The notes under the pieces are model-generated. The model did no database searches. It saw only the letters and a list, made by a program, of their open reading frames with translations, and was not told where the DNA came from. Made by a program: the position numbers and the translations under genes. From positions 18,134 to 82,133 of the IMG/VR virus record IMGVR_UViG_3300036851_000411: a stretch of 64,000 nt of DNA. The stretch is one strand, 5' to 3'. Origin of the DNA: a virus. Positions 8,368-18,596 of the stretch are shown piece after piece. Numbering within the stretch: the stretch's first letter is position 1; each line of letters starts with the position of its first letter.

Positions 8368-9981
8368 ATGCTTACCGCCGCCGAGATCGAAGGGCTCCTC
8401 GAGCGGGTCCGGTCCGGCACCCTGACGCTCGATCAGCAACGCGAGCTCTCGTTCCTCCTCTGTGATGTGCCGCCGGCGCCGCCGGCCATCCCGTTCACGG
8501 ACTTCGTTGCCGAGGCGAAGCCCGACTATCGGTGGTGGGAGTGGAACACCCGACTCGCCGCGCGGCTGCAGGACGTGGCAGATGGGAAGATCCGTCGCCT
8601 CATGGTGTTCTGCCCGCCGCGCTATGGAAAGTCCGAGCTCACATCGAAGCTGTTCCCGGCCTACTACCAGTACCGCTTCCCAATACGGCGCGTCGGGCTC
8701 AGTGCGTACGGCGAGGACCGCGCGCACGAGTATCTGAGCCACGCGCAGGAATACTATCTCCGCGTCGGCGGCAAGCTCCGCTCGTTGCGCGATGCGGGGC
8801 TCCGTCGTGGGTTCGAGGTCGAAGGCCGAGGCGGCATGTGGGCCGCGGGTCTCAATGGCGCGTTGCCTGGCCTCGGCTTCCACCTTGGCATTATCGACGA
8901 TCCGCTGAAGAACATGGCGGAGGCGGCCAGTAAGGTCATCCAGTCGCGGAACATCAAGTGGTACAACACGACGTACTACAGCCGCCGGGAACCGAACGAC
9001 GCGATCATTCTCATCACCACGCGGTGGCACCCGCGGGACCTCGCCGGGCAGATCCTCGAGCAGGAGCGCATCAACAAGGACGACGAGGGCGCGCTCGAAA
9101 ACTGGCACATCGTCATCTACGACGAGACCCGCGACGAGAAGGAGCCCTACGACCTGCCGGACAATTGCTCGCTGGAGCCCGACTGGCGTAAGCACGGGGA
9201 GCTGCTGTGCCCCGAGCGATGGCCGGAGTCGGAGGTCAAGAAGAACCGCGCCAAGGGGACGTACAGCTATAGCACGGTCTACCAGCAGCGCCCGAAGACT
9301 TCGGAGGGCACGCGGTTCAAGGCTGAGTGGTTCCCCACGGTCGACGCCATGCCGGTGGATGTCACGGCGCGCGTGAGGTATTGGGATCTGGCGGGCACCG
9401 ACGAGCCGAGCGACGAAGACTCGGATCCCGACTGGACGGTCGGCTTCCGCGTGTCACGCGGGCGGCAGGACCAGATCATCTATTTCGAGAAGATGAAGCG
9501 GTTCCGGAAGAAACCCGGCGGCCGCAATGCCACCATGCGTGAGACAGCGGAGGCCGACGCGCGGGAATTCGGATCGGAGGAGCAACCCAATCGGCACGCG
9601 GTCGTGCAGTGGTGGGAAGGCGAGTCGGGGGTCGATGGCGGTGATCGCAATAAGGCGCTCGGCGCGGCGCTCGCCGGCCACATCTGCAAATTCGATCGAC
9701 CCATCGCGAGTAAGGAAATGCGTCACGAGGTCCTCGCGGGGCAGGCGGAGGTCGGGAATGTGCGGCTAGTGGAGCCCAAGCGCGATGCGCATGGCAACCT
9801 GCTCGATGGGGAAGAGGACTGGATTCCAACGTTCCTCGACGAGATGACGAGCGTGCCGTTCGGGGCGCACGACGACATCGCGGACGCGGCGAGCGATGGC
9901 ACGGCCAAAGTGCTCGACGCGCCCGAGCCCATTCTCGCCGAGATCGTGACGGTGGAGCTCAAGAGTCCCTTCGCGCTCTAG
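8368..9981 (+). CDS. terL: Terminase large subunit
   Basis: Walker A PPRYGKS, Walker B IIDDP, TRWH, nuclease motifs WDLA and HDDIADA. Confidence 0.95.
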   Translation: MLTAAEIEGLLERVRSGTLTLDQQRELSFLLCDVPPAPPAIPFTDFVAEAKPDYRWWEWNTRLAARLQDVADGKIRRLMVFCPPRYGKSELTSKLFPAYYQYRFPIRRVGLSAYGEDRAHEYLSHAQEYYLRVGGKLRSLRDAGLRRGFEVEGRGGMWAAGLNGALPGLGFHLGIIDDPLKNMAEAASKVIQSRNIKWYNTTYYSRREPNDAIILITTRWHPRDLAGQILEQERINKDDEGALENWHIVIYDETRDEKEPYDLPDNCSLEPDWRKHGELLCPERWPESEVKKNRAKGTYSYSTVYQQRPKTSEGTRFKAEWFPTVDAMPVDVTARVRYWDLAGTDEPSDEDSDPDWTVGFRVSRGRQDQIIYFEKMKRFRKKPGGRNATMRETAEADAREFGSEEQPNRHAVVQWWEGESGVDGGDRNKALGAALAGHICKFDRPIASKEMRHEVLAGQAEVGNVRLVEPKRDAHGNLLDGEEDWIPTFLDEMTSVPFGAHDDIADAASDGTAKVLDAPEPILAEIVTVELKSPFAL

Positions 9982-10015: not shown

Positions 10016-10032
10016 TATGCTATTATCACATA
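10016..10032. promoter_or_regulatory. 17-bp palindromic operator, copy 2
   Basis: TATGCTATTATCACATA upstream of the portal gene. Confidence 0.7.
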
Positions 10033-10074
10033 ACTCGCGGTCTCCTCTCCACGGCCCCACCCGGAGTGCATCGG

Positions 10075-11520
10075 ATGTCCAAACGGCGGCGCGGCGGCAC
10101 TGCCCTCGACGCACTCGCCGGGTCGCCCGGCCCATCCGGTGGTCGGTCGAGCCCCTATGTCGAGCTGGGCTCCACCGGCCTCTCCAACGTCGGCGGGTTC
10201 GTTCGCGCGGATTTCCTCCCGCAGCTCGTCGGCCGGCAGGGGATCCTCGCTTATCAGGAGATGGAGAACAACGATGCGCTGATCGGCGGCATCCTCTACG
10301 CCATGCAGATGCTGATCCGCTCGGGCGAGTGGACGATCGAGCCCAACGAGCTGGCGACGAAAGCGGCCGGACCGGGCGGGAAGATCAGCCCCGCGGCGCA
10401 GAACGCGGTCGACTTCATGCGCGATGCGTTGTTCGAAAGCATGGATCACCCGTTCGATGAGCTGATCACCGACGCGCTCACGATGCTGCCCTACGGGTTC
10501 GCGCCCTGCGAGTCCGTGCTCAAGAAGCTTCCGGCGTCCAACCTCGGGCCCGCGCGCATCGGCTTCAAGTCAGTCCGGCTCCGCGCCCAGGATACGCTCT
10601 ACAAGTGGGAGTTCGATCCGGAGTCCGGTGACCTGTTAGGCATGTGGCAACAGGACTTCCAGAACCCGGTCGCCTACATCCCGTACGACCGGTTGGCGTT
10701 GTTCCGCACCAACTCGAGCCGTGGCAATCCCGAGGGACGCTCGGTTCTCCGCAACTCGTACAAGTATTACAAGCGCAAAGGGGCGATCGAGGAGGCCGAA
10801 GGTCGCGCCGCACTCCGATCGGCTGGTCTCGTGGTGATGCGGGTGCCGTGGAGCATCATGAACCCGACCGCCGGCCAGATCGAGCGAAACATCTTCGCGC
10901 AGCTCAAGACCGCGCTCGCCAGCATCGCCGAGGACCGGCAGGGCGCGGTCATCCTGCCGAGTGATCCGTACGAGGGTCAGCAGGGCAAGCGTGGCGGCTA
11001 TCAGTACGACATCGACTACAAAGTCGCCGATGGCCGGCGATCGGCCGACATGAGCACGCTGGTCGAGCGCATGGACAAGCGCATCGCCGGATCCGTGCTC
11101 GCCGACTTTATCCTCATCGGGCAGCAGGCTGCCGGTTCGTACGCCATGCACGGCGACAAGACCGAGATGTTCACGAACGCGTTAGGTGGGTACAACCGCG
11201 TCATCGAGGCGGAGCTCAACCGCCGGACGATCCGACGATGGTGGCACCTCAACGGCCTGCCGGACGAGCTGCGTCCGCGACTCAAGCCGAAGAAGCTGTC
11301 GAAAGAGCAGCTCGAGAAGATCGGCGCGTTCGTCGGGCAACTGGCGGCTGCCGGCATGCTCCCGCCGGACAAGGCGTTGTCGAACAGACTGCTGGGGATG
11401 GCCGAGCTGCCACCGTCCGAGGTCCCGCTTCCGCCGCCGAGGAGCGCGACGCCCCCACCGGGGCGGCCTAACGCGCTCACAGGGACGGATCCCGACGACG
11501 AGGAGCACGCTGATGCCTGA
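10075..11520 (+). CDS. Portal protein (DUF935-like)
   Basis: ELGSTGL, MLPYGFAPCE, GNPEGRSVLR, AGSYA; follows terL. Confidence 0.9.
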   Translation: MSKRRRGGTALDALAGSPGPSGGRSSPYVELGSTGLSNVGGFVRADFLPQLVGRQGILAYQEMENNDALIGGILYAMQMLIRSGEWTIEPNELATKAAGPGGKISPAAQNAVDFMRDALFESMDHPFDELITDALTMLPYGFAPCESVLKKLPASNLGPARIGFKSVRLRAQDTLYKWEFDPESGDLLGMWQQDFQNPVAYIPYDRLALFRTNSSRGNPEGRSVLRNSYKYYKRKGAIEEAEGRAALRSAGLVVMRVPWSIMNPTAGQIERNIFAQLKTALASIAEDRQGAVILPSDPYEGQQGKRGGYQYDIDYKVADGRRSADMSTLVERMDKRIAGSVLADFILIGQQAAGSYAMHGDKTEMFTNALGGYNRVIEAELNRRTIRRWWHLNGLPDELRPRLKPKKLSKEQLEKIGAFVGQLAAAGMLPPDKALSNRLLGMAELPPSEVPLPPPRSATPPPGRPNALTGTDPDDEEHADA

Positions 11521-11734
11521 TTTCGGCCGGCACGTCACGTCGATCACCCCGAACCACGAGGGGCTCGACGAGGACGACATCGCGCTCACCCGCCGGCATG
11601 CGCGCATCGCCGCCGAGTTCGCGGCGGAGCTGGAGCGGCAGGGCATGGACGAGAGTCGCGTCACCTTCATCACCGGTGACTACATCGCGAGCCTTGCGGC
11701 GAACGATGACCCCAAACAGCCGTGGGCATCGTGA
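11513..11734 (+). CDS. hypothetical protein
   Basis: Overlapping start with RBS GGAG. Confidence 0.5.
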   Translation: MPDFGRHVTSITPNHEGLDEDDIALTRRHARIAAEFAAELERQGMDESRVTFITGDYIASLAANDDPKQPWAS

Positions 11735-11925
11735 GCGACGCCGCCGTGCGCTGCCACTACGTGTGGGTGATGGCCACCACAGTCCGCGTGCAGACCGTGT
11801 GTGAGGACGACTCGTTCACGTTCGGCGTAGTCCACCCGGGTCAGGCCTTCCATGGCGTGCCGTACGAGGCGCTGCAGGCCGGGAAGTATGACGCGGCGAT
11901 GCAGTTCGTCCCGTTCGGCACCTAA
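11731..11925 (+). CDS. hypothetical protein
   Basis: GTGA-coupled. Confidence 0.5.
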   Translation: MSDAAVRCHYVWVMATTVRVQTVCEDDSFTFGVVHPGQAFHGVPYEALQAGKYDAAMQFVPFGT

Positions 11926-11929
11926 CGCG

Positions 11930-14542
11930 GTGGCGACGCTCTTCGCGGCGCTCCGGGCCGAGGCGCAGTCGGCAGTCGCCAAGGGCGCGGCGATGTACGT
12001 CGGCCGCCGGCTGCTGAACGAGCGCGCGCTCCGCACCTGGTGGGTGGCGAACAGAAAGGCGGGTGAGCCTGACCTCGATCCGAACCCGCACATCACCGTT
12101 GCCTACTCGCGCACCGCGGTGCATCTGGCGCCCGACGATGACCTGGTCGTCGTGCCGCCGGCCGCCATGATCGGCTTTCGCGTGTTAGGCACGGATCGCG
12201 CGGTCGTCCTGGAGATCGATGGCGCGCTCGCCCTGCGCGTCATGCACAGCGGCGATCCTGCCGGTCACGCTGGCAACGACGGCGAGGCCGGCGTCCTCAA
12301 TGCGCGCTTTGCCCAGTATCGCGAGGCGGGCGCGACGTGGGACCATGGGTCGTATACGCCGCATCTGACGCTGTTCTACCTGCCCGCTGGCTACGACTCG
12401 ACCGACTGGCGCGACGGCCCCGACCAGTGGCCGCCGTTGCCGGACTTCCCGCTGGTGTTCGGCCGGGAGCTGCGCGCGAACGGCGACGACGATGCGTTCG
12501 ACCAGCCGGGCGCAGAGGCGGGCGTCGAGAAGCTGCTGCGCATGCTGTTCGGCGGTGAGCAGATCGCGAAGGCCACGACGGTCGCCGCGCCGATCCTTCG
12601 CGCGACATGGCTGGCGTGGCCTGATGCCGAGTCTCTCGCGGACACGTCGGACGAGTGGCTGTACCACGTCACCAGCGCGGCCAACGCCGACGCGATCCTG
12701 ACTGAGGGCTTCGCGCCCGACGATTGTGAGCGGACCATCACCGGTGGTGTGGACGAGGCGCAGTCGGTCGGGCGCTCGTTCTTCACCGACCGGGGCGGCG
12801 TCGCCTACTGGGCCGAGCGCATCGGGACTGCGTTAGGCGGCGTTCCGTTGGCCGTGGTTGCCATTCCGAAGCGAAGCGTCCCGCACGCCGAGCACGACGC
12901 GTTAGGCACGCAGCAGGCCGGCGGGCACGCCGCGTTTTGCGTTGAGGGTCCGATTCTGCCGCGTGGCGTCGGGCGGTCGACGTGGGGCGAGCTGGTTGAC
13001 CGTGTTGTTGGCAAGCGCGAGACGAAGGTCCCAAGCCCGCCGCTCCGGCGCGGGTTGCAATGGCTCACAGCCGCCGGCCAGCGGCGCGCGCAGTCCGCCG
13101 CCGACCGCTACGCCGCAGATCTCCGCGCCGGGCGCGCCACGGTGTTCGATCGCGTTCTGCGCGACGAGCGACGGGATCGCCAGCTGCAGCGCATGCGGCG
13201 CGAGGACGAGCCGCCGCCGCCGACGCTCATCGACACACTCGCGGCGACGTACCGCCGACGCCTCGAGCGGCATTACCACAACGTCGAGCACCAGTACGCC
13301 GACGTAGTGGAAGAGGCACGCCGGGACCGCGCGGAGTGGGATGGGATGATGGAGTCCTATGTCCGCGACGGTGGCAGTCGCTACCTCGTGACGAAAGAGT
13401 GGGTGACCGCCGAGGATGAGCGGGTGCGTCACGCCCACGCCGCGCTCCACGGCCGCACCATTCCGTACGACGCGCTCTTTCAGGGTCAGCACGGACCGGT
13501 CTGGGGGACGCCCGACGGACTCGGATGTCGGTGCCGACTTCGCGTTGCGTTCCCGACAATCGACGGCGACGCGCTCGAGGAGTCAGCCGAGAAGTCGTTG
13601 ACACGCTCCGTCGGTGCCTGGCTCGTGGCCAAATTCCGCCCCGCGCAACACCGCGTGCCGGGCGGTCTGCCGCGTGGTGGTCGGTGGGCAGGCTCGGCGT
13701 CGGCGCGAGCGCACCAGACGCTCGCCGTGTTGCCGTCGGCGGACGATGCGGGGCATTACGTGGCGGTGCCATTCCCGCTGCATCAGCGGTTCGAGCATGA
13801 GCGGGCGTATGGACGTGCGATTTCGATGCGTGCCCGCCCGACGGTCGAGTCGGTGCCGCTGTCGGAGCTCCACGCCACGCAAGCACTCGTGCACCGCGCT
13901 GGCGTCGCACGGTGGATCGACGGCAGGGACGAGGCCGATGCGCAACCCGCGCGCCTGATGCGTGATCCGAGCGGACGCGTGCTCATCCAGCAGGGCCATC
14001 ATGAGGCGACCGCAGCGCGGCTCCGAGGGGACACGCACCTCGACGCCGAGGTCTACGATCTCGCGTCCGAGGCGCTCTGGAAGGAATGGGCACCGACCGA
14101 CGTACCTGAGCACATCCAGAAAGCGCTCGACGCCAGACTCGGGATTTCGGATATCGAAAAGTCGGAAGACGAGCAACGGCTCGTTACCGGATGGGCGCTC
14201 GTCTGCACGGAGCCCGACGGCACGCCGCTGGTCGATCGACAGAATGACATCGTCGATATCCGCGAGCTCGAGCAGGCCGCGCACCGTTTCATGGTGGAGT
14301 ATGCCGACGGTGGGATTGTGCATCTGCGCGACGCGGACGGCGAGCCCATTGTCGCTGGCCGGATCGTCGAGTCCATGGTGGTGACGCCCGAGCTCAAGGC
14401 GGCGTTAGGCCTGCCGGGGGACACGCCACTCGGCTGGCTCGTGACCTTCCATGTCACGAGTGACGAGGTGTGGGCGCGCGTGAAAGCGGGCGAGCTCCGC
14501 ATGTTTTCGATCGGCGGGAAGGCGGACCGCGTACCGGTTTGA
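11930..14542 (+). CDS. Head polyprotein: Acb1-like 2H phosphoesterase + ART-like + MuF + ParB-like + XkdF-like prohead protease
   Basis: PHITV/PHLTL; LYHVT..ILTEG..SFFT; KEWVT..RVRHAH..GCRC; QGHHE; DRQNDIV..H..IVES..FSIGG. Confidence 0.8.
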   Translation: MATLFAALRAEAQSAVAKGAAMYVGRRLLNERALRTWWVANRKAGEPDLDPNPHITVAYSRTAVHLAPDDDLVVVPPAAMIGFRVLGTDRAVVLEIDGALALRVMHSGDPAGHAGNDGEAGVLNARFAQYREAGATWDHGSYTPHLTLFYLPAGYDSTDWRDGPDQWPPLPDFPLVFGRELRANGDDDAFDQPGAEAGVEKLLRMLFGGEQIAKATTVAAPILRATWLAWPDAESLADTSDEWLYHVTSAANADAILTEGFAPDDCERTITGGVDEAQSVGRSFFTDRGGVAYWAERIGTALGGVPLAVVAIPKRSVPHAEHDALGTQQAGGHAAFCVEGPILPRGVGRSTWGELVDRVVGKRETKVPSPPLRRGLQWLTAAGQRRAQSAADRYAADLRAGRATVFDRVLRDERRDRQLQRMRREDEPPPPTLIDTLAATYRRRLERHYHNVEHQYADVVEEARRDRAEWDGMMESYVRDGGSRYLVTKEWVTAEDERVRHAHAALHGRTIPYDALFQGQHGPVWGTPDGLGCRCRLRVAFPTIDGDALEESAEKSLTRSVGAWLVAKFRPAQHRVPGGLPRGGRWAGSASARAHQTLAVLPSADDAGHYVAVPFPLHQRFEHERAYGRAISMRARPTVESVPLSELHATQALVHRAGVARWIDGRDEADAQPARLMRDPSGRVLIQQGHHEATAARLRGDTHLDAEVYDLASEALWKEWAPTDVPEHIQKALDARLGISDIEKSEDEQRLVTGWALVCTEPDGTPLVDRQNDIVDIRELEQAAHRFMVEYADGGIVHLRDADGEPIVAGRIVESMVVTPELKAALGLPGDTPLGWLVTFHVTSDEVWARVKAGELRMFSIGGKADRVPV

Positions 14543-14596
14543 GCATAGCTCGAGCGGGGTAGATTCGTCCGGGTTCCGTGGCACGACGCTTGACTC

Positions 14597-14613
14597 TATG
14601 TGATAATCGCATA
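14597..14613. promoter_or_regulatory. 17-bp palindromic operator, copy 3, within a promoter
   Basis: TATGTGATAATCGCATA within TTGACT-16-TAAGTT. Confidence 0.8.
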
Positions 14614-14683
14614 AGTTGCGCGACGTGAAGACACCAGCCGCCCTCGCCGAGCGCCCCATGGGCCTGTCGTAAGGCTCGATGCG

Positions 14684-15658
14684 ATGCCGAGCGACGCCTC
14701 GACTCCGACGTTCCTCCGGCGGCTCCGCCTCCGTGAGGTGTCGCTGGTCCCGCGCGGCGCGAACCAGCGGGCGGACGTGCTCATCGTCAAATCCGACGCC
14801 GACCCCGGTCCCGCCTCCGCGGAGCGCTCCATGAGAAACCCGATCGTGAAGTTCCTCGGTGGCCTCAAGCACGCGGTCCTCGCCATGGCCACGACCGACG
14901 CCCAGAGGGCCGCGGTCGCGAAGGGTTTTGGCGACGCCGAGGCCGCGCTCGCCGAACCGGTCACCGATGGTGGCGCCGACAACGGGGATGGGAATGGTGC
15001 GGCTGCGGTCGACGTAGCCGCGATCGCCGATGCCGTGGCCGAGAAGATGGCGGCGCGCTGCGCGAAGGCGGGCTGTGGTGGGATGATCGAGAAGGGCAAG
15101 TGCGCCAAGTGCGGCGCCATGACCAAGGCCGACAACTCGGGAGATGCCGCGATGGATCAGGAAGCGATCAACAAGGCGATCGGCGACGCGGTCGGCGCGG
15201 TCCGGACCGAGTTCACCACGGCGATCACGAAAGCGCAGGCCGACATCACGAAGGCGAACGAGCGCGCTGACGCCGCCGAGGCCAAGGTCGCCACGCTCGA
15301 GAAGGCGCAGAGCGAGCAGACGAACATCGCGAAGGCGCAGGAGCTGCTCGGCGAGCTGCCGGGCGATGCCAAGCCGATCGCGAGCCTCCTCGCGAAGGCC
15401 AGCCCGGAAGAGCGCGCCGAGTTCGAGAAGATCGCGAAGGCCGGGAACGCCGCGACGCAGAGCGCCCGCCTGTTCGTGCCCGCCGGCCGCGATGTCGCGA
15501 TGAGCGGCAGTGCGCTTGCCGAGATCGAGTCGAAGGCCGCCCAGGTGGCCAAGGACCAGAAGATCACGAAGGAGCAGGCGTTCGACGTGGTCGTCAAGGC
15601 GGATCCGTCGCTCTACACGCGCTACCGCGCGGAGAACGAGATCCGTCCGCAGAGCTGA
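14684..15658 (+). CDS. Scaffold protein with N-terminal protease segment
   Basis: LREVSLVPRGAN, then Ala/Lys-rich coiled coil; precedes capsid genes. Confidence 0.75.
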   Translation: MPSDASTPTFLRRLRLREVSLVPRGANQRADVLIVKSDADPGPASAERSMRNPIVKFLGGLKHAVLAMATTDAQRAAVAKGFGDAEAALAEPVTDGGADNGDGNGAAAVDVAAIADAVAEKMAARCAKAGCGGMIEKGKCAKCGAMTKADNSGDAAMDQEAINKAIGDAVGAVRTEFTTAITKAQADITKANERADAAEAKVATLEKAQSEQTNIAKAQELLGELPGDAKPIASLLAKASPEERAEFEKIAKAGNAATQSARLFVPAGRDVAMSGSALAEIESKAAQVAKDQKITKEQAFDVVVKADPSLYTRYRAENEIRPQS

Positions 15659-15734
15659 GTCCCGGTCCGACCTCGCGTTCCCCGTGTTCCAACTCGCGTT
15701 TCTCCTGTCACCGCGTTAGGCGAGGACCGATCCT

Positions 15735-16172
15735 ATGGCAACCGAAGGCGGCAACACCCGATCGACGCTCGCAGGCGTGGCCGGCGAGGACCTCAGCGCC
15801 AAGGCCGGCTACATCGCGAAGATGAATTCGAGCGGTGTCTGGGTGCTCGCCAGCACCGGTGAGATGGGCTTTCCGATCATCGTCGGCGCGGCCAGCGGTG
15901 GCGCCATCACGCTCGCGACCCCGGGCTATGTCGCCTGCGTGGTGGCCGGCGCGGCGATCGCCACGCCGTTCACGACGCTCAAGGCCGACTCGGCGGGCAA
16001 GGTGCAGGCCGCCGTCAAGGGCCGCACCGATACGTCCGATGCGGGCGCCGCGGTGGATCCGCTTCTCGGCTCCAACGTGCTCGGTTTCAATCTCACGGCC
16101 GCCGCGGGTGACCTCTCGGTCATCGAGATGCTGGTCTGTCCCGTCGGCGCTGTGCCCACGACTGCCGCCTAA
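15735..16172 (+). CDS. Capsid decoration/cement protein
   Basis: Ala/Gly-rich, between scaffold and major capsid gene. Confidence 0.65.
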   Translation: MATEGGNTRSTLAGVAGEDLSAKAGYIAKMNSSGVWVLASTGEMGFPIIVGAASGGAITLATPGYVACVVAGAAIATPFTTLKADSAGKVQAAVKGRTDTSDAGAAVDPLLGSNVLGFNLTAAAGDLSVIEMLVCPVGAVPTTAA

Positions 16173-16234: not shown

Positions 16235-17233
16235 ATGCCGTTCGCCCCGACCCGCGGTCAGATCCACGTCGACCGCCTGCTGACGAACATCACGATCGGC
16301 TTCTTGCAGGATGCGCGAGCGTTCGTCGCACCGCGCGTCTTCCAGCGCGTTCCTGTCCTCAAGCAGAGCGACCGGTACGCCGTGTATGACCGCGGCTTCT
16401 TCTTCCGGAACCAGATGAAGAAGCGGGCGCCGGGCACCGAAGCGGCACGTGTCCACTACGCGATCGACAACACGCCGACGTACTACGCCGACGTGTGGGC
16501 GCTCGCCAAGGACATCGCTGACCAGGACCGCGCCAACTACGACCAGCCGCTGCTCGGCCCGGACCGTGAGGCGTCGCTGTTCCTCGGTCAGCAGGCGCTC
16601 CTGAACCAGGAGACGGAGTTCGTCACCAACTGGTTCAAGACGGGCGTCTGGACGACCGAATACACCGGCGTCGCGTCGAGCCCGAGTGGCCCGCAGTTCC
16701 TCCAGTGGAACGACGCGGCGTCGAATCCGATCGAGGACATCCGTGCGCGGAAGCGCGCGGCCCGCGAGCTCACCGGGTACGAACTCAACATCCTCACGCT
16801 CGGCCGCGCGGTCTACGACGCGCTGCTCGATCACCCCGACATCATCGACCGCATCAAGTACGGCCAGACGCCTGGCCAGCCGGCGATGGCGAACGAGCAG
16901 ATCCTCGCGCAGCTGTTCGAAGTCGACGAGGTGAATGTCATGAACGGCATTCAGACGACTTCGAACGAAGGCGCGACCAACACGTTCGCCTTCATCGGCG
17001 GCAAGCACGCGATGCTCACGTACCGCCCACCGGCCCCGGGGCTCTTCGTCCCAGCAGCTGGCTACACGTTCGTGTGGACGGGCTACCAGGGCAGCGCGGG
17101 CGAGCTCGGCACGGAAGTCAGCCAGTACCGGATGCCGGAGCTCAAGAGCGACCGCACCGAGATCGAGGCCGCGTACGACCAGAAGCTCGTGTCGGCCGAC
17201 CTCGGCGTGTTCTTCGCCAGCGCCGTCGCGTAA
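16235..17233 (+). CDS. Major capsid protein
   Basis: HVDRLLTNITIGF, FQRVPVLKQSDRY, LLDHPDIIDRIKY; size and position. Confidence 0.9.
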   Translation: MPFAPTRGQIHVDRLLTNITIGFLQDARAFVAPRVFQRVPVLKQSDRYAVYDRGFFFRNQMKKRAPGTEAARVHYAIDNTPTYYADVWALAKDIADQDRANYDQPLLGPDREASLFLGQQALLNQETEFVTNWFKTGVWTTEYTGVASSPSGPQFLQWNDAASNPIEDIRARKRAARELTGYELNILTLGRAVYDALLDHPDIIDRIKYGQTPGQPAMANEQILAQLFEVDEVNVMNGIQTTSNEGATNTFAFIGGKHAMLTYRPPAPGLFVPAAGYTFVWTGYQGSAGELGTEVSQYRMPELKSDRTEIEAAYDQKLVSADLGVFFASAVA

Positions 17234-17981: not shown

Positions 17982-18596
17982 GTGGCGTTTACCGTCGAAG
18001 ACGGTTCCGGGTTAGCCAACGCCACCGCGCTTGTTGCCGTGGCGACGGTCGATGCGTTCTGGGCCGACCGCGGTGGCAACGCCACGTGGGATGCGATCGC
18101 CGACATTCCCTCCGGCGCGACCGAGGAGGAACAGAAGCAAGCGGCGATTGTAAAGGCGAGCGACTACGTCCGCTCGCATCCCGGCTATCGCTGGCGCGGA
18201 TCGAAGAAGACGGCCGCGCAGCGCATGCCATGGCCGCGCACCGGGGCGCAGGAACGCGACGGTGCCGAGGCGCTGCCTGACGACGCGGTGCCGTGGCAAG
18301 TCGTTGACGCCGTGTGCGTGCTCGCGCCTCGCGCCGCGGCCGGCGAGAACCTCTTCCCGGATCTCACGCGCGGCGGGCAGATCGCGTCGCAGACGGTTGG
18401 GCCCATCTCGACGAGCTACTTCAAGAATGCGCCGGTCGGGAAGGTCCTCCAGGCGGTCGACGGGCTGGTTGCGCCGCTCCTCCGCCTCGGCCTGAGCGAC
18501 GACCCGATCGACCCGTTCTTCTCGATCCTCTCGGTGCCTGACGTGTTCGTGGAGTCGAACTACTCCAACCTGACCGGTGGAGCGGGTGCTCCGTGA
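17982..18596 (+). CDS. Head-tail adaptor (DnaT-like phage family)
   Basis: MAFTVEDGSGLANA, QRMPWPRTG, VGPISTSY. Confidence 0.8.
   Translation: MAFTVEDGSGLANATALVAVATVDAFWADRGGNATWDAIADIPSGATEEEQKQAAIVKASDYVRSHPGYRWRGSKKTAAQRMPWPRTGAQERDGAEALPDDAVPWQVVDAVCVLAPRAAAGENLFPDLTRGGQIASQTVGPISTSYFKNAPVGKVLQAVDGLVAPLLRLGLSDDPIDPFFSILSVPDVFVESNYSNLTGGAGAP

Follow-up and report, generated by a model that had tools for sequence, protein, structure and literature searches.

One open reading frame (ORF) in the head module of an uncultured phage raises the question of whether an enzyme predicted to degrade nucleotide signals, a head morphogenesis domain and a prohead protease are truly made as one polypeptide and, if so, what such a polypeptide would do in the virus particle. 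The ORF occupies positions 11930-14542 on the plus strand of a 64,000-nucleotide window (the whole stretch of DNA analysed here), which belongs to an IMG/VR virus record of 82 kb, ~90% complete and derived from a soil metagenome. Its 870-aa product (P0002), whose residue numbering is used throughout, carries from N- to C-terminus an Acb1-type 2H phosphoesterase, an orphan region that may have an ADP-ribosyltransferase (ART) fold, a MuF domain, a short linker motif, a ParB/sulfiredoxin (Srx)-fold domain and an XkdF-type protease (Table 1). We propose that this is a polyvalent head protein derived from two joined, adjacent head-module genes, and that it would be packaged, processed by the protease and relieved of a cargo that is injected; we hold this account to be probable, with real room for doubt.

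We began with the reading frame itself, since high-GC DNA leaves wrong frames open and the frame therefore has to be checked directly. Positions 11930-14542, between the portal and scaffold genes, form a single ORF in the correct frame and without interruption, within a long frame that is open from 11852 to 14542. GC is high at codon position 3 and low at codon position 2 from the first codon to the last, including the stretch that has no homologs, and the other two frames contain 17 and 16 stops across the ORF. The third-position GC (GC3) signal enters the long frame at ~11925, right after the TAA (11923-11925) of the upstream small ORF. On these two grounds, the GTG at 11930 is the likely start of the 870-aa protein, with the ATG at 11993 as a possible alternative. 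Searching for internal starts preceded by a Shine-Dalgarno sequence did not help, as a clear one is missing from most genes of the phage. Altogether, the frame statistics, the domains found in one frame and the second assembly described below uphold the single multi-domain ORF that the initial annotation of this stretch had described, and its domain coordinates proved correct to within a few dozen bases.

The same sequence is also found outside the record. An identical 870-aa protein is already present in a public protein collection, and a separate assembly (a 26.6-kb Logan contig of depth 12.6, from a soil-metagenome run) shows zero differences over 11900-14600. This run is the only public one that contains the sequence and is probably the source sample, hence the agreement is a check of the assembly and not of the biology; an artefact of the assembler is thereby excluded, whereas an error in the consensus is not.

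At the N-terminus, the resemblance to Acb1 that had been noted for a 2H phosphoesterase with two HxT motifs is borne out by profile and residue evidence. The Acb1 model PF23474 scores 42.8 bits on the whole protein and 48.2 bits on the subregion against a cut-off of 27, and it is the only 2H model above its cut-off, with LigT_PEase, 2_5_RNA_ligase2 and CPDase all below theirs. The catalytic tetrad H54-I-T56 / H145-L-T147 is kept, is invariant or nearly so in an alignment of 17 relatives, and aligns to the HTT and HIT of 7T26, the T4 Acb1 structure; in T4 the catalytic residues of this HxT/HxT tetrad are H44, T46, H113 and T115 (PMC9117128). When a profile of the relatives was compared with the sequences of solved structures, it found only Acb1 entries (7T26 at 1.4e-21; 9Q2G; 9Q2Y) and the portal of cyanophage Pam3, with no LigT or CPDase at E<=1. 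The direct match of the query domain to 7T26 reaches only E ~1, and an insertion of ~24 residues between the two HxT motifs is private to the query and absent from the aligned relatives. From Acb1 family membership only, we infer that nucleotide-signalling immunity would be the target of this domain.

The two head domains are also recognised at the profile level. For the MuF domain already named in the initial annotation, PF04233 gives 34.6-36.7 bits versus a cut-off of 29.6 and phrog_3517 gives 1.7e-13, while a MuF protein of 362 aa (P0045) is 40% identical over residues 374-548. For the C-terminal XkdF-type protease, which likewise stood, PF14550 matches at 4.8e-19, above its cut-off; His798 (14321-14323) and Ser860 (14507-14509) are invariant across 56 sequences, and the AlphaFold2 (AF2) model of residues 590-870, built on 56 sequences, with a predicted local distance difference test score (pLDDT) of 81, gives this domain the protease fold of T4 gp21 and herpesvirus assemblin. 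The polyprotein contains the only MuF, the only XkdF and the only Acb1 domain of the 82-kb record, and no S78/U35, ClpP or S49 protease exceeds its cut-off elsewhere in the record; a search for the S77 family was uninformative, its positive control having found nothing. Since the only MuF and XkdF domains lie in one polypeptide and no other prohead protease was found, the phage has to use this polypeptide for head assembly.

How the two head functions came to be joined is suggested by Roseobacter phage RDJL Phi 1, which is, judged by its capsid protein, the nearest relative in culture (major capsid protein 50% and XkdF 30% identical). Its gene order matches the one seen here: portal, two small genes, gp70 (MuF), gp71 (XkdF, 132 aa), gp72 (scaffold), gp73 and gp74 (major capsid protein). 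In RDJL Phi 1, however, MuF and XkdF are separate genes, with no cargo domains and no fusion. Therefore, the best reading of the present ORF is that these two neighbours have been fused, the N-terminus having gained cargo and the protease a ParB-like module in front of it. As a side observation, RDJL Phi 1 gp71 (L004:5947-6345) is a 132-aa XkdF-type protease domain that is labelled 'DNA methyltransferase' in RefSeq; this is likely a propagated misannotation, the label having probably been taken from phrog_1530, a family whose members fuse other domains to XkdF.

A short motif marks the place of the join. The annotation had pointed to FRPAQHRVPGG..GGRW, which we find as KFRPAQHRVPGGLPRGGRWAGS at residues 568-590 and which matches a recurrent inter-domain motif, well beyond chance: there are 45 copies in 35 of the 150 best database proteins, with <1 expected from shuffled sequences searched with the same regular expression. 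The shorter form HxxxG[RK][FW] has 40 copies in 31 of the 150 proteins (0.7 in shuffles) and is nearly always KFNPYHDxxGRF[AT]S, and the longer variant FNxxHxPxGxxxGGxF/W occurs in the query, in P0014 (two copies), in P0020 and in P0021. The copies are located in linkers between domains. We classed the position of the motif relative to XkdF in 130 proteins and found it 17-74 residues after XkdF in 22 of the 33 that have at least 100 residues following the protease domain. Among the 97 proteins that end in XkdF, only 4 have the motif, and in 3 of these (P0021, P0055, P0074) it lies at residues 16-18. The query motif lies ~20 residues past MuF and ahead of the ParB-XkdF module, at the place where a motif-ParB-XkdF protein, if once separate, would have begun; judged from the sequences, it marks the fusion seam.

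What the motif does is a more speculative matter. It is absent from every other protein of the window, and this single occurrence indicates that it is not a general cleavage site of the structural proteins of the phage. It is not mentioned in Iyer et al. (PMC5512222; term search), and a full-text literature search of the motif strings did not find it. By analogy, we tentatively suggest that KFRPAQHRVPGGLPRGGRWAGS might be a portable signal for XkdF-type head assembly, either a site of protease cleavage or docking or a capsid-targeting sequence (CTS) like the N-terminal CTS of T4 internal proteins, although we think this rather less likely to hold than to fail. If it were true, it would explain both the loading and the separation of cargo modules, and it would give a rule for XkdF polyvalent proteins in which the motif is the start of a packaged cargo unit. 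The motif and its positional link to XkdF are, in our opinion, the most useful new item of this analysis, as a concrete candidate for a cutting or loading signal. Separately, four large polyvalent proteins of uncultured phages each have one to two copies of a KFNPYHDxxGRF-type motif at domain borders: P0014 (1318 aa, Acb1-Zeta-ART), P0107 (748 aa, 2H-ART-XkdF), P0151 (855 aa, NUDIX-XkdF-Zeta) and P0106 (970 aa, XkdF-Zeta).

Fusion of these domains to the maturation protease had been described as unusual, and this part of the initial annotation finds no support in comparison with the databases. An exhaustive phmmer search returned 3,516 matches, of which the best 150 are listed. The best of them are two-domain Acb1-XkdF proteins of uncultured phages (P0003-P0013 and similar, 290-416 aa; 1.5e-39 to ~1e-31), which have the same order as the query (Acb1 first, XkdF last) and the same catalytic residues but lack its MuF, ParB-like and ART-like parts. 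The Acb1 region was found in 22 of the 150 listed matches with phmmer, and three Acb1-XkdF fusions were confirmed by Pfam; such fusions are recurrent, as far as sequence comparison goes. XkdF is also fused to ADPrib_exo_Tox, ART-PolyVal plus 2H (P0107), Zeta toxin, NUDIX, glutamine deamidase, PBECR1, histidine phosphatase and ChaB, and by these predicted partners it is a hub domain. In 97 of the 130 related proteins classed, XkdF is C-terminal, as in the query (740-870 of 870). In addition, C-terminal assemblin-like peptidases and fusions of 2H domains to MuF or portal proteins are known (PMC5512222).

Only the exact multi-domain combination appears unique. No protein among the listed matches shares at least three domains with the query, and any protein resembling it to a similar degree in both MuF and XkdF would outscore every listed match. 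A word-indexed search with the whole protein found only itself, tblastn against 50,697 phage records matched the XkdF part only, and no close relatives were found in viral and genome contigs with the query protein, P0003 or the portal protein as probes. Among cultured phages of Rhizobium, Synechococcus and Pseudomonas, portal proteins with Acb1-like domains also occur. Such a domain is likewise seen in cyanophage Pam3, which is both cultured and structurally studied: the sequence of its portal gp3, as deposited (PDB 8HDS chain A), ends in an Acb1-like 2H domain at residues 439-612 (profile E 5e-27), and this is a virion protein.

For the two remaining domains, structure prediction gave mixed results. 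The AF2 model of residues 590-870 shows a ParB/Srx alpha+beta fold ahead of the assemblin fold, and Foldseek and VIA match the ParB-like domain to Srx, ParB, Noc, SbnI and SerK. The fold half of the ParB/Srx-like GHH domain that had been proposed is thus supported, while its active site is altered: the pocket motif reads QGHHE (residues 688-692; 13991-14005), compared with DGHHR in P0049, P0061, P0070 and P0081 and DSHHR in P0066, five homologs that combine a ParB-like domain with XkdF, and an arginine is typical of the active site of the ParB/Srx superfamily (Iyer et al. 2017, PMC5512222). Because this pocket arginine is lost, nucleotide-dependent catalysis has probably been lost or the domain repurposed, and it may be a DNA-binding domain or a structural spacer only. 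No Pfam family matches the region at E<=10 save for a chance Sbi-IV match; its homologs match no ParB model, and two of them match PF23719 (VapB-like) below the cut-off.

Per-domain structure prediction, which had been suggested as a check, thus recovered the ParB/Srx and assemblin folds but not that of the ART-like region, for which the single-sequence AF2 model of residues 228-362 has a pLDDT of 47 and matches no fold. Foldseek and VIA found nothing significant with this model, and its very short alignments to KptA and PARP (E 3-7) were rejected as evidence. Residues 228-362 have no match in Pfam (E<=10), NCBIfam, PADLOC, PDB sequences (phmmer), phage tblastn or the word-indexed protein search, and no BLAST similarity to the ART-PolyVal domain of P0107, while by codon-position GC the coding frame is sound throughout. 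In the ESM Atlas, Arr-ms accounts for 24 of the 30 nearest named clusters (score 0.93; 143 shared features versus 170 typical of true members), and the Atlas ESMFold model has template modelling (TM) scores, normalised by query, of 0.65 to DarT, 0.60 to a DarT/PARP cluster, 0.56 to DUF952 and 0.52 to Tpt1. Since the Atlas neighbours are all ART-fold families of one clade, we lean slightly towards an ART fold for this region, with its catalytic residues as candidates only. The ADP-ribosyltransferase-like domain of the initial annotation is accordingly kept as a lead: sequence and profile searches do not back it, the AF2 model was too poor to use, and the ESM Atlas is its sole support.

Sequence signals downstream of the ORF bear on its expression and on its partner. 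The promoter-like site in the 141-bp gap before the scaffold gene, which has lower GC, is the only sigma-70-like site in 11400-15800. The 17-bp operator TATGTGATAATCGCATA and its near variants occur at 10016, 14597, 24410 and 35449 in the window, four copies where none are expected from shuffles, and these are intergenic, ahead of the portal (10016), of the scaffold and capsid genes and of later modules. Given the promoter-like site and the operator in the gap, it appears that the low-copy polyprotein is transcribed as part of one unit and the high-copy genes for scaffold and capsid as part of another. The N-terminus of the scaffold-like protein P0152 (14684-14760) is LRLREVSLVPRGAN, a peptide found immediately after XkdF in proteins where XkdF and scaffold are fused (P0082), and there is a weak match to the C-terminal end (last strand region) of the S78 model at 14714-14800. 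Together, these two features suggest that the scaffold N-terminus docks on the protease in trans. The same N-terminal pattern is seen in RDJL Phi 1 gp72 (L004:6347-6420).

From these elements we propose the following mechanism. One ancestral gene would have encoded MuF with an N-terminal cargo (the Acb1-type 2H phosphodiesterase and the orphan, possibly ART-fold, domain), and the other would have begun with the conserved linker motif, followed by the ParB/Srx-fold domain and the XkdF prohead protease. The joined protein would be made late, with the portal transcription unit, and its MuF domain would dock it on the portal inside the procapsid; each capsid is known to have 1-2 copies of MuF (SPP1 gp7) bound to its portal, and injection has been proposed for effectors fused to MuF (PMC5576092). 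XkdF would then sit beside the scaffold, whose N-terminal EVSLV..GAN peptide corresponds to the segment after XkdF in fused forms. There it would process the scaffold and probably cleave the linkers of the polyprotein. The Acb1-type enzyme thus freed and the other cargo would, in a few copies, stay in the head and pass with the DNA into the next host, in which the 2H enzyme would hydrolyse cyclic oligonucleotide alarm signals. This packaged-released-injected model is one already proposed in print (PMC5512222; PMC5576092), and nothing in our results contradicts it.

Several points weigh against this mechanism. The proteolytic activity of XkdF is a family-level prediction, the ParB-like domain has no conserved superfamily pocket arginine, and the ART assignment stands on one source, the ESM Atlas, that is not based on alignment. 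Packaging, self-processing and injection are all plausible, predicted steps. The few portal-bound copies would supply a small dose of protease and of Acb1 per virion, and T4 Acb1 acts as a free cytoplasmic enzyme (PMC9117128). Finally, the full architecture has no second example among the matches listed, which means that conservation cannot vouch for the fusion, and the sole run in which it occurs probably represents the source sample.

The main rival is that the cargo is expressed late in the cytoplasm and is not delivered. In that case, fusion to head genes would time it with the structural proteins that trigger abortive infection, the cargo would act in the producing cell, and the fusion would be a matter of regulation or stoichiometry. 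The gene does lie in the late portal transcription unit, between the operator-bearing promoters at 10016 and 14597, T4 Acb1 works free in infected cells (PMC9117128), and Acb1-like domains on several head proteins (XkdF, portal, MuF) are as expected if timing outweighs the carrier. However, all of these carriers, namely portal, MuF and prohead protease, end inside the procapsid, which argues for location and not timing alone. Moreover, low-copy head proteins are poorly suited to making an enzyme in bulk, and the published model for MuF fusions is injection (PMC5512222; PMC5576092). We thus regard late co-expression as unlikely, though credible enough to be kept in mind.

The second rival concerns the substrate: the 2H domain would process RNA ends or 2'-5' oligonucleotides, in RNA repair or as an RNase, and would be a cargo for host takeover rather than for immune evasion. 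RNase-like and 2'-5' oligoadenylate-degrading roles are listed as alternatives for the 2H domains of polyvalent proteins (Iyer et al., PMC5512222), the domain has weak sub-threshold matches to LigT_PEase and 2_5_RNA_ligase2, phrog_755 is labelled 'RNA ligase', and the 24-residue insertion has no counterpart in relatives. Against this, as described above, the Acb1 model is the sole 2H Pfam model over its cut-off, and among solved structures (E<=1) the family profile finds Acb1 entries and the tail of the Pam3 portal only, with no LigT or CPDase. Hence we find an RNA role improbable.

Lastly, it is very unlikely, and on the frame statistics and the second assembly largely rejected, that the fusion is an artefact or a recent non-functional read-through in which a missing stop or an indel in the metagenome consensus wrongly joins two or three real genes (Acb1-ART-MuF and ParB-XkdF) from which the phage makes separate proteins: relatives do have MuF and XkdF as separate genes, a second full-architecture protein was not found among the database matches listed, chance-open frames are expected in high-GC DNA, and the seam falls on a motif that is N-terminal in other proteins, yet four independently recognised domains share one frame whose codon-position GC signal runs on across the seams, each other frame has 16-17 stops, the sequence from the second assembler is identical at a depth of ~12.6 with no variants, and other phages commonly have MuF fused to a protease and XkdF in multi-domain proteins.

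The reading of a packaged polyvalent head protein also fits the surroundings of the gene, which are those of a phage head module (Table 1). The portal gene ends 410 bp upstream of the polyprotein gene, with two small ORFs in between. These small ORFs (11510-11734 and 11722-11925) are candidate immunity or chaperone partners of the cargo domains.

Table 1. Positions of the polyprotein gene, its domains and motifs, and the neighbouring features in the window.
Feature	Position	Strand	Extent, evidence or remark
Large terminase	8368-9981	+	Head module
Mu-type portal gene	10066..11520	+	PF06074 6e-23, phrog_113 2e-51
Two small ORFs (~74, ~67 aa)	about 11510-11734, 11722-11925	+	Good GC3 signal; between portal and polyprotein
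Polyvalent head protein gene (P0002)	11930..14542	+	870 aa plus stop, single open frame
Acb1-family 2H phosphoesterase domain	11969..12514	+	Residues ~14-195; PF23474 above cut-off
HxT motifs of the 2H domain	12089-12097 (H54, T56), 12362-12370 (H145, T147)	+	Alignment with relatives
Orphan domain, possibly ART fold of Arr/DarT/Tpt1 (H-Y-[ED]) type	12611..13015	+	Residues 228-362; ESM Atlas neighbours only
Candidate ART motifs, picked by eye	YHVT 12662 (245), SFFT 12776 (283), EHDA 12890 (321)	+	F in place of Y in SFFT
MuF (SPP1 gp7 / Mu gpF type) head morphogenesis domain	13049..13594	+	Residues ~374-555; PF04233, phrog_3517
Linker peptide KFRPAQHRVPGGLPRGGRWAGSA	13631..13699	+	Variant of the recurrent motif KFNPYHDxxGRF[AT]S or FNxxHxPxGxxxGGxF
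ParB/sulfiredoxin-fold domain	13826..14101	+	Residues 633-724; AF2 model, Foldseek, VIA
XkdF-type (Peptidase_S78_2, PF14550) assemblin-fold protease domain	14147..14539	+	Residues 740-870; only prohead-protease-type domain above cut-off in the record
Promoter-like site with 17-bp palindromic operator TATGTGATAATCGCATA (at 14597)	14578..14613	+	141-bp gap before scaffold gene
Scaffold-like gene (P0152)	14684..15658	+	PHROG matches on scaffold halves of 'head maturation protease' families
Small virion protein	15735-16172	+	Head module
Major capsid protein (E type)	16235..17233	+	phrog_1005 7e-84; 50% identical to RDJL Phi 1 major head protein
Ad1 adaptor	17982-18596	+	Head module

If our model is true, the phage would have a ready-made signal-degrading enzyme of the Acb1 type, and perhaps a modifying enzyme, inside its capsid and tied to two indispensable head proteins. 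The protein would then be a compact natural test case for polyvalent proteins, in which one can ask whether they are packaged, whether they are cut by the C-terminal assemblin-like protease, and where the cut sites lie. The broader point, that anti-defence enzymes like Acb1 are often delivered within head proteins rather than as free early proteins, was predicted in 2017.

Among known systems, T4 Acb1 (gene 57B; PDB 7T26; Hobbs et al. 2022, PMC9117128) has in common with the query the 2H fold family and the HxT/HxT tetrad. T4 Acb1, however, is a free-standing protein of 152 aa, whereas the query domain forms the N-terminal part of a head protein and has a 24-residue insertion. The MuF toxins of temperate phages provide a second comparison: their MuF domain is encoded directly downstream of the portal gene and carries fused effectors, including ARTs, for which injection with the DNA has been proposed (Jamet et al. 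2017, PMC5576092). The place of MuF just past the portal gene and the effector fusion are common to the query, but in the MuF polymorphic toxins the effector is C-terminal to MuF, whereas the query has its cargo at the N-terminus and a prohead protease at the C-terminus. A precedent for MuF and a protease in one polypeptide is the annotated protease-MuF fusion of Cluster B1 mycobacteriophages, a likeness drawn by annotation.

The closest parallel is the class of polyvalent proteins (Iyer, Burroughs, Anand, de Souza and Aravind 2017, J Bacteriol, PMC5512222), for which MuF, ART and ParB were described as hubs, 2H domains on MuF and portal proteins were predicted to degrade defence nucleotides, and the assemblin-like peptidase was found to be always C-terminal. 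In the query, 2H, MuF, ParB/Srx-fold and assemblin-like peptidase domains are found in one ORF among virion genes, and it thus has in common with this class the multi-domain build, the position among virion genes, the pool of domains and the C-terminal peptidase. It differs in that its ParB-like domain has no DdrB-ParB Pfam match and no conserved arginine, and in that MuF and XkdF in one chain are seen in no other protein among the matches listed. Altogether, the protein is a new combination within the class of polyvalent proteins defined in 2017, not a new kind of system.

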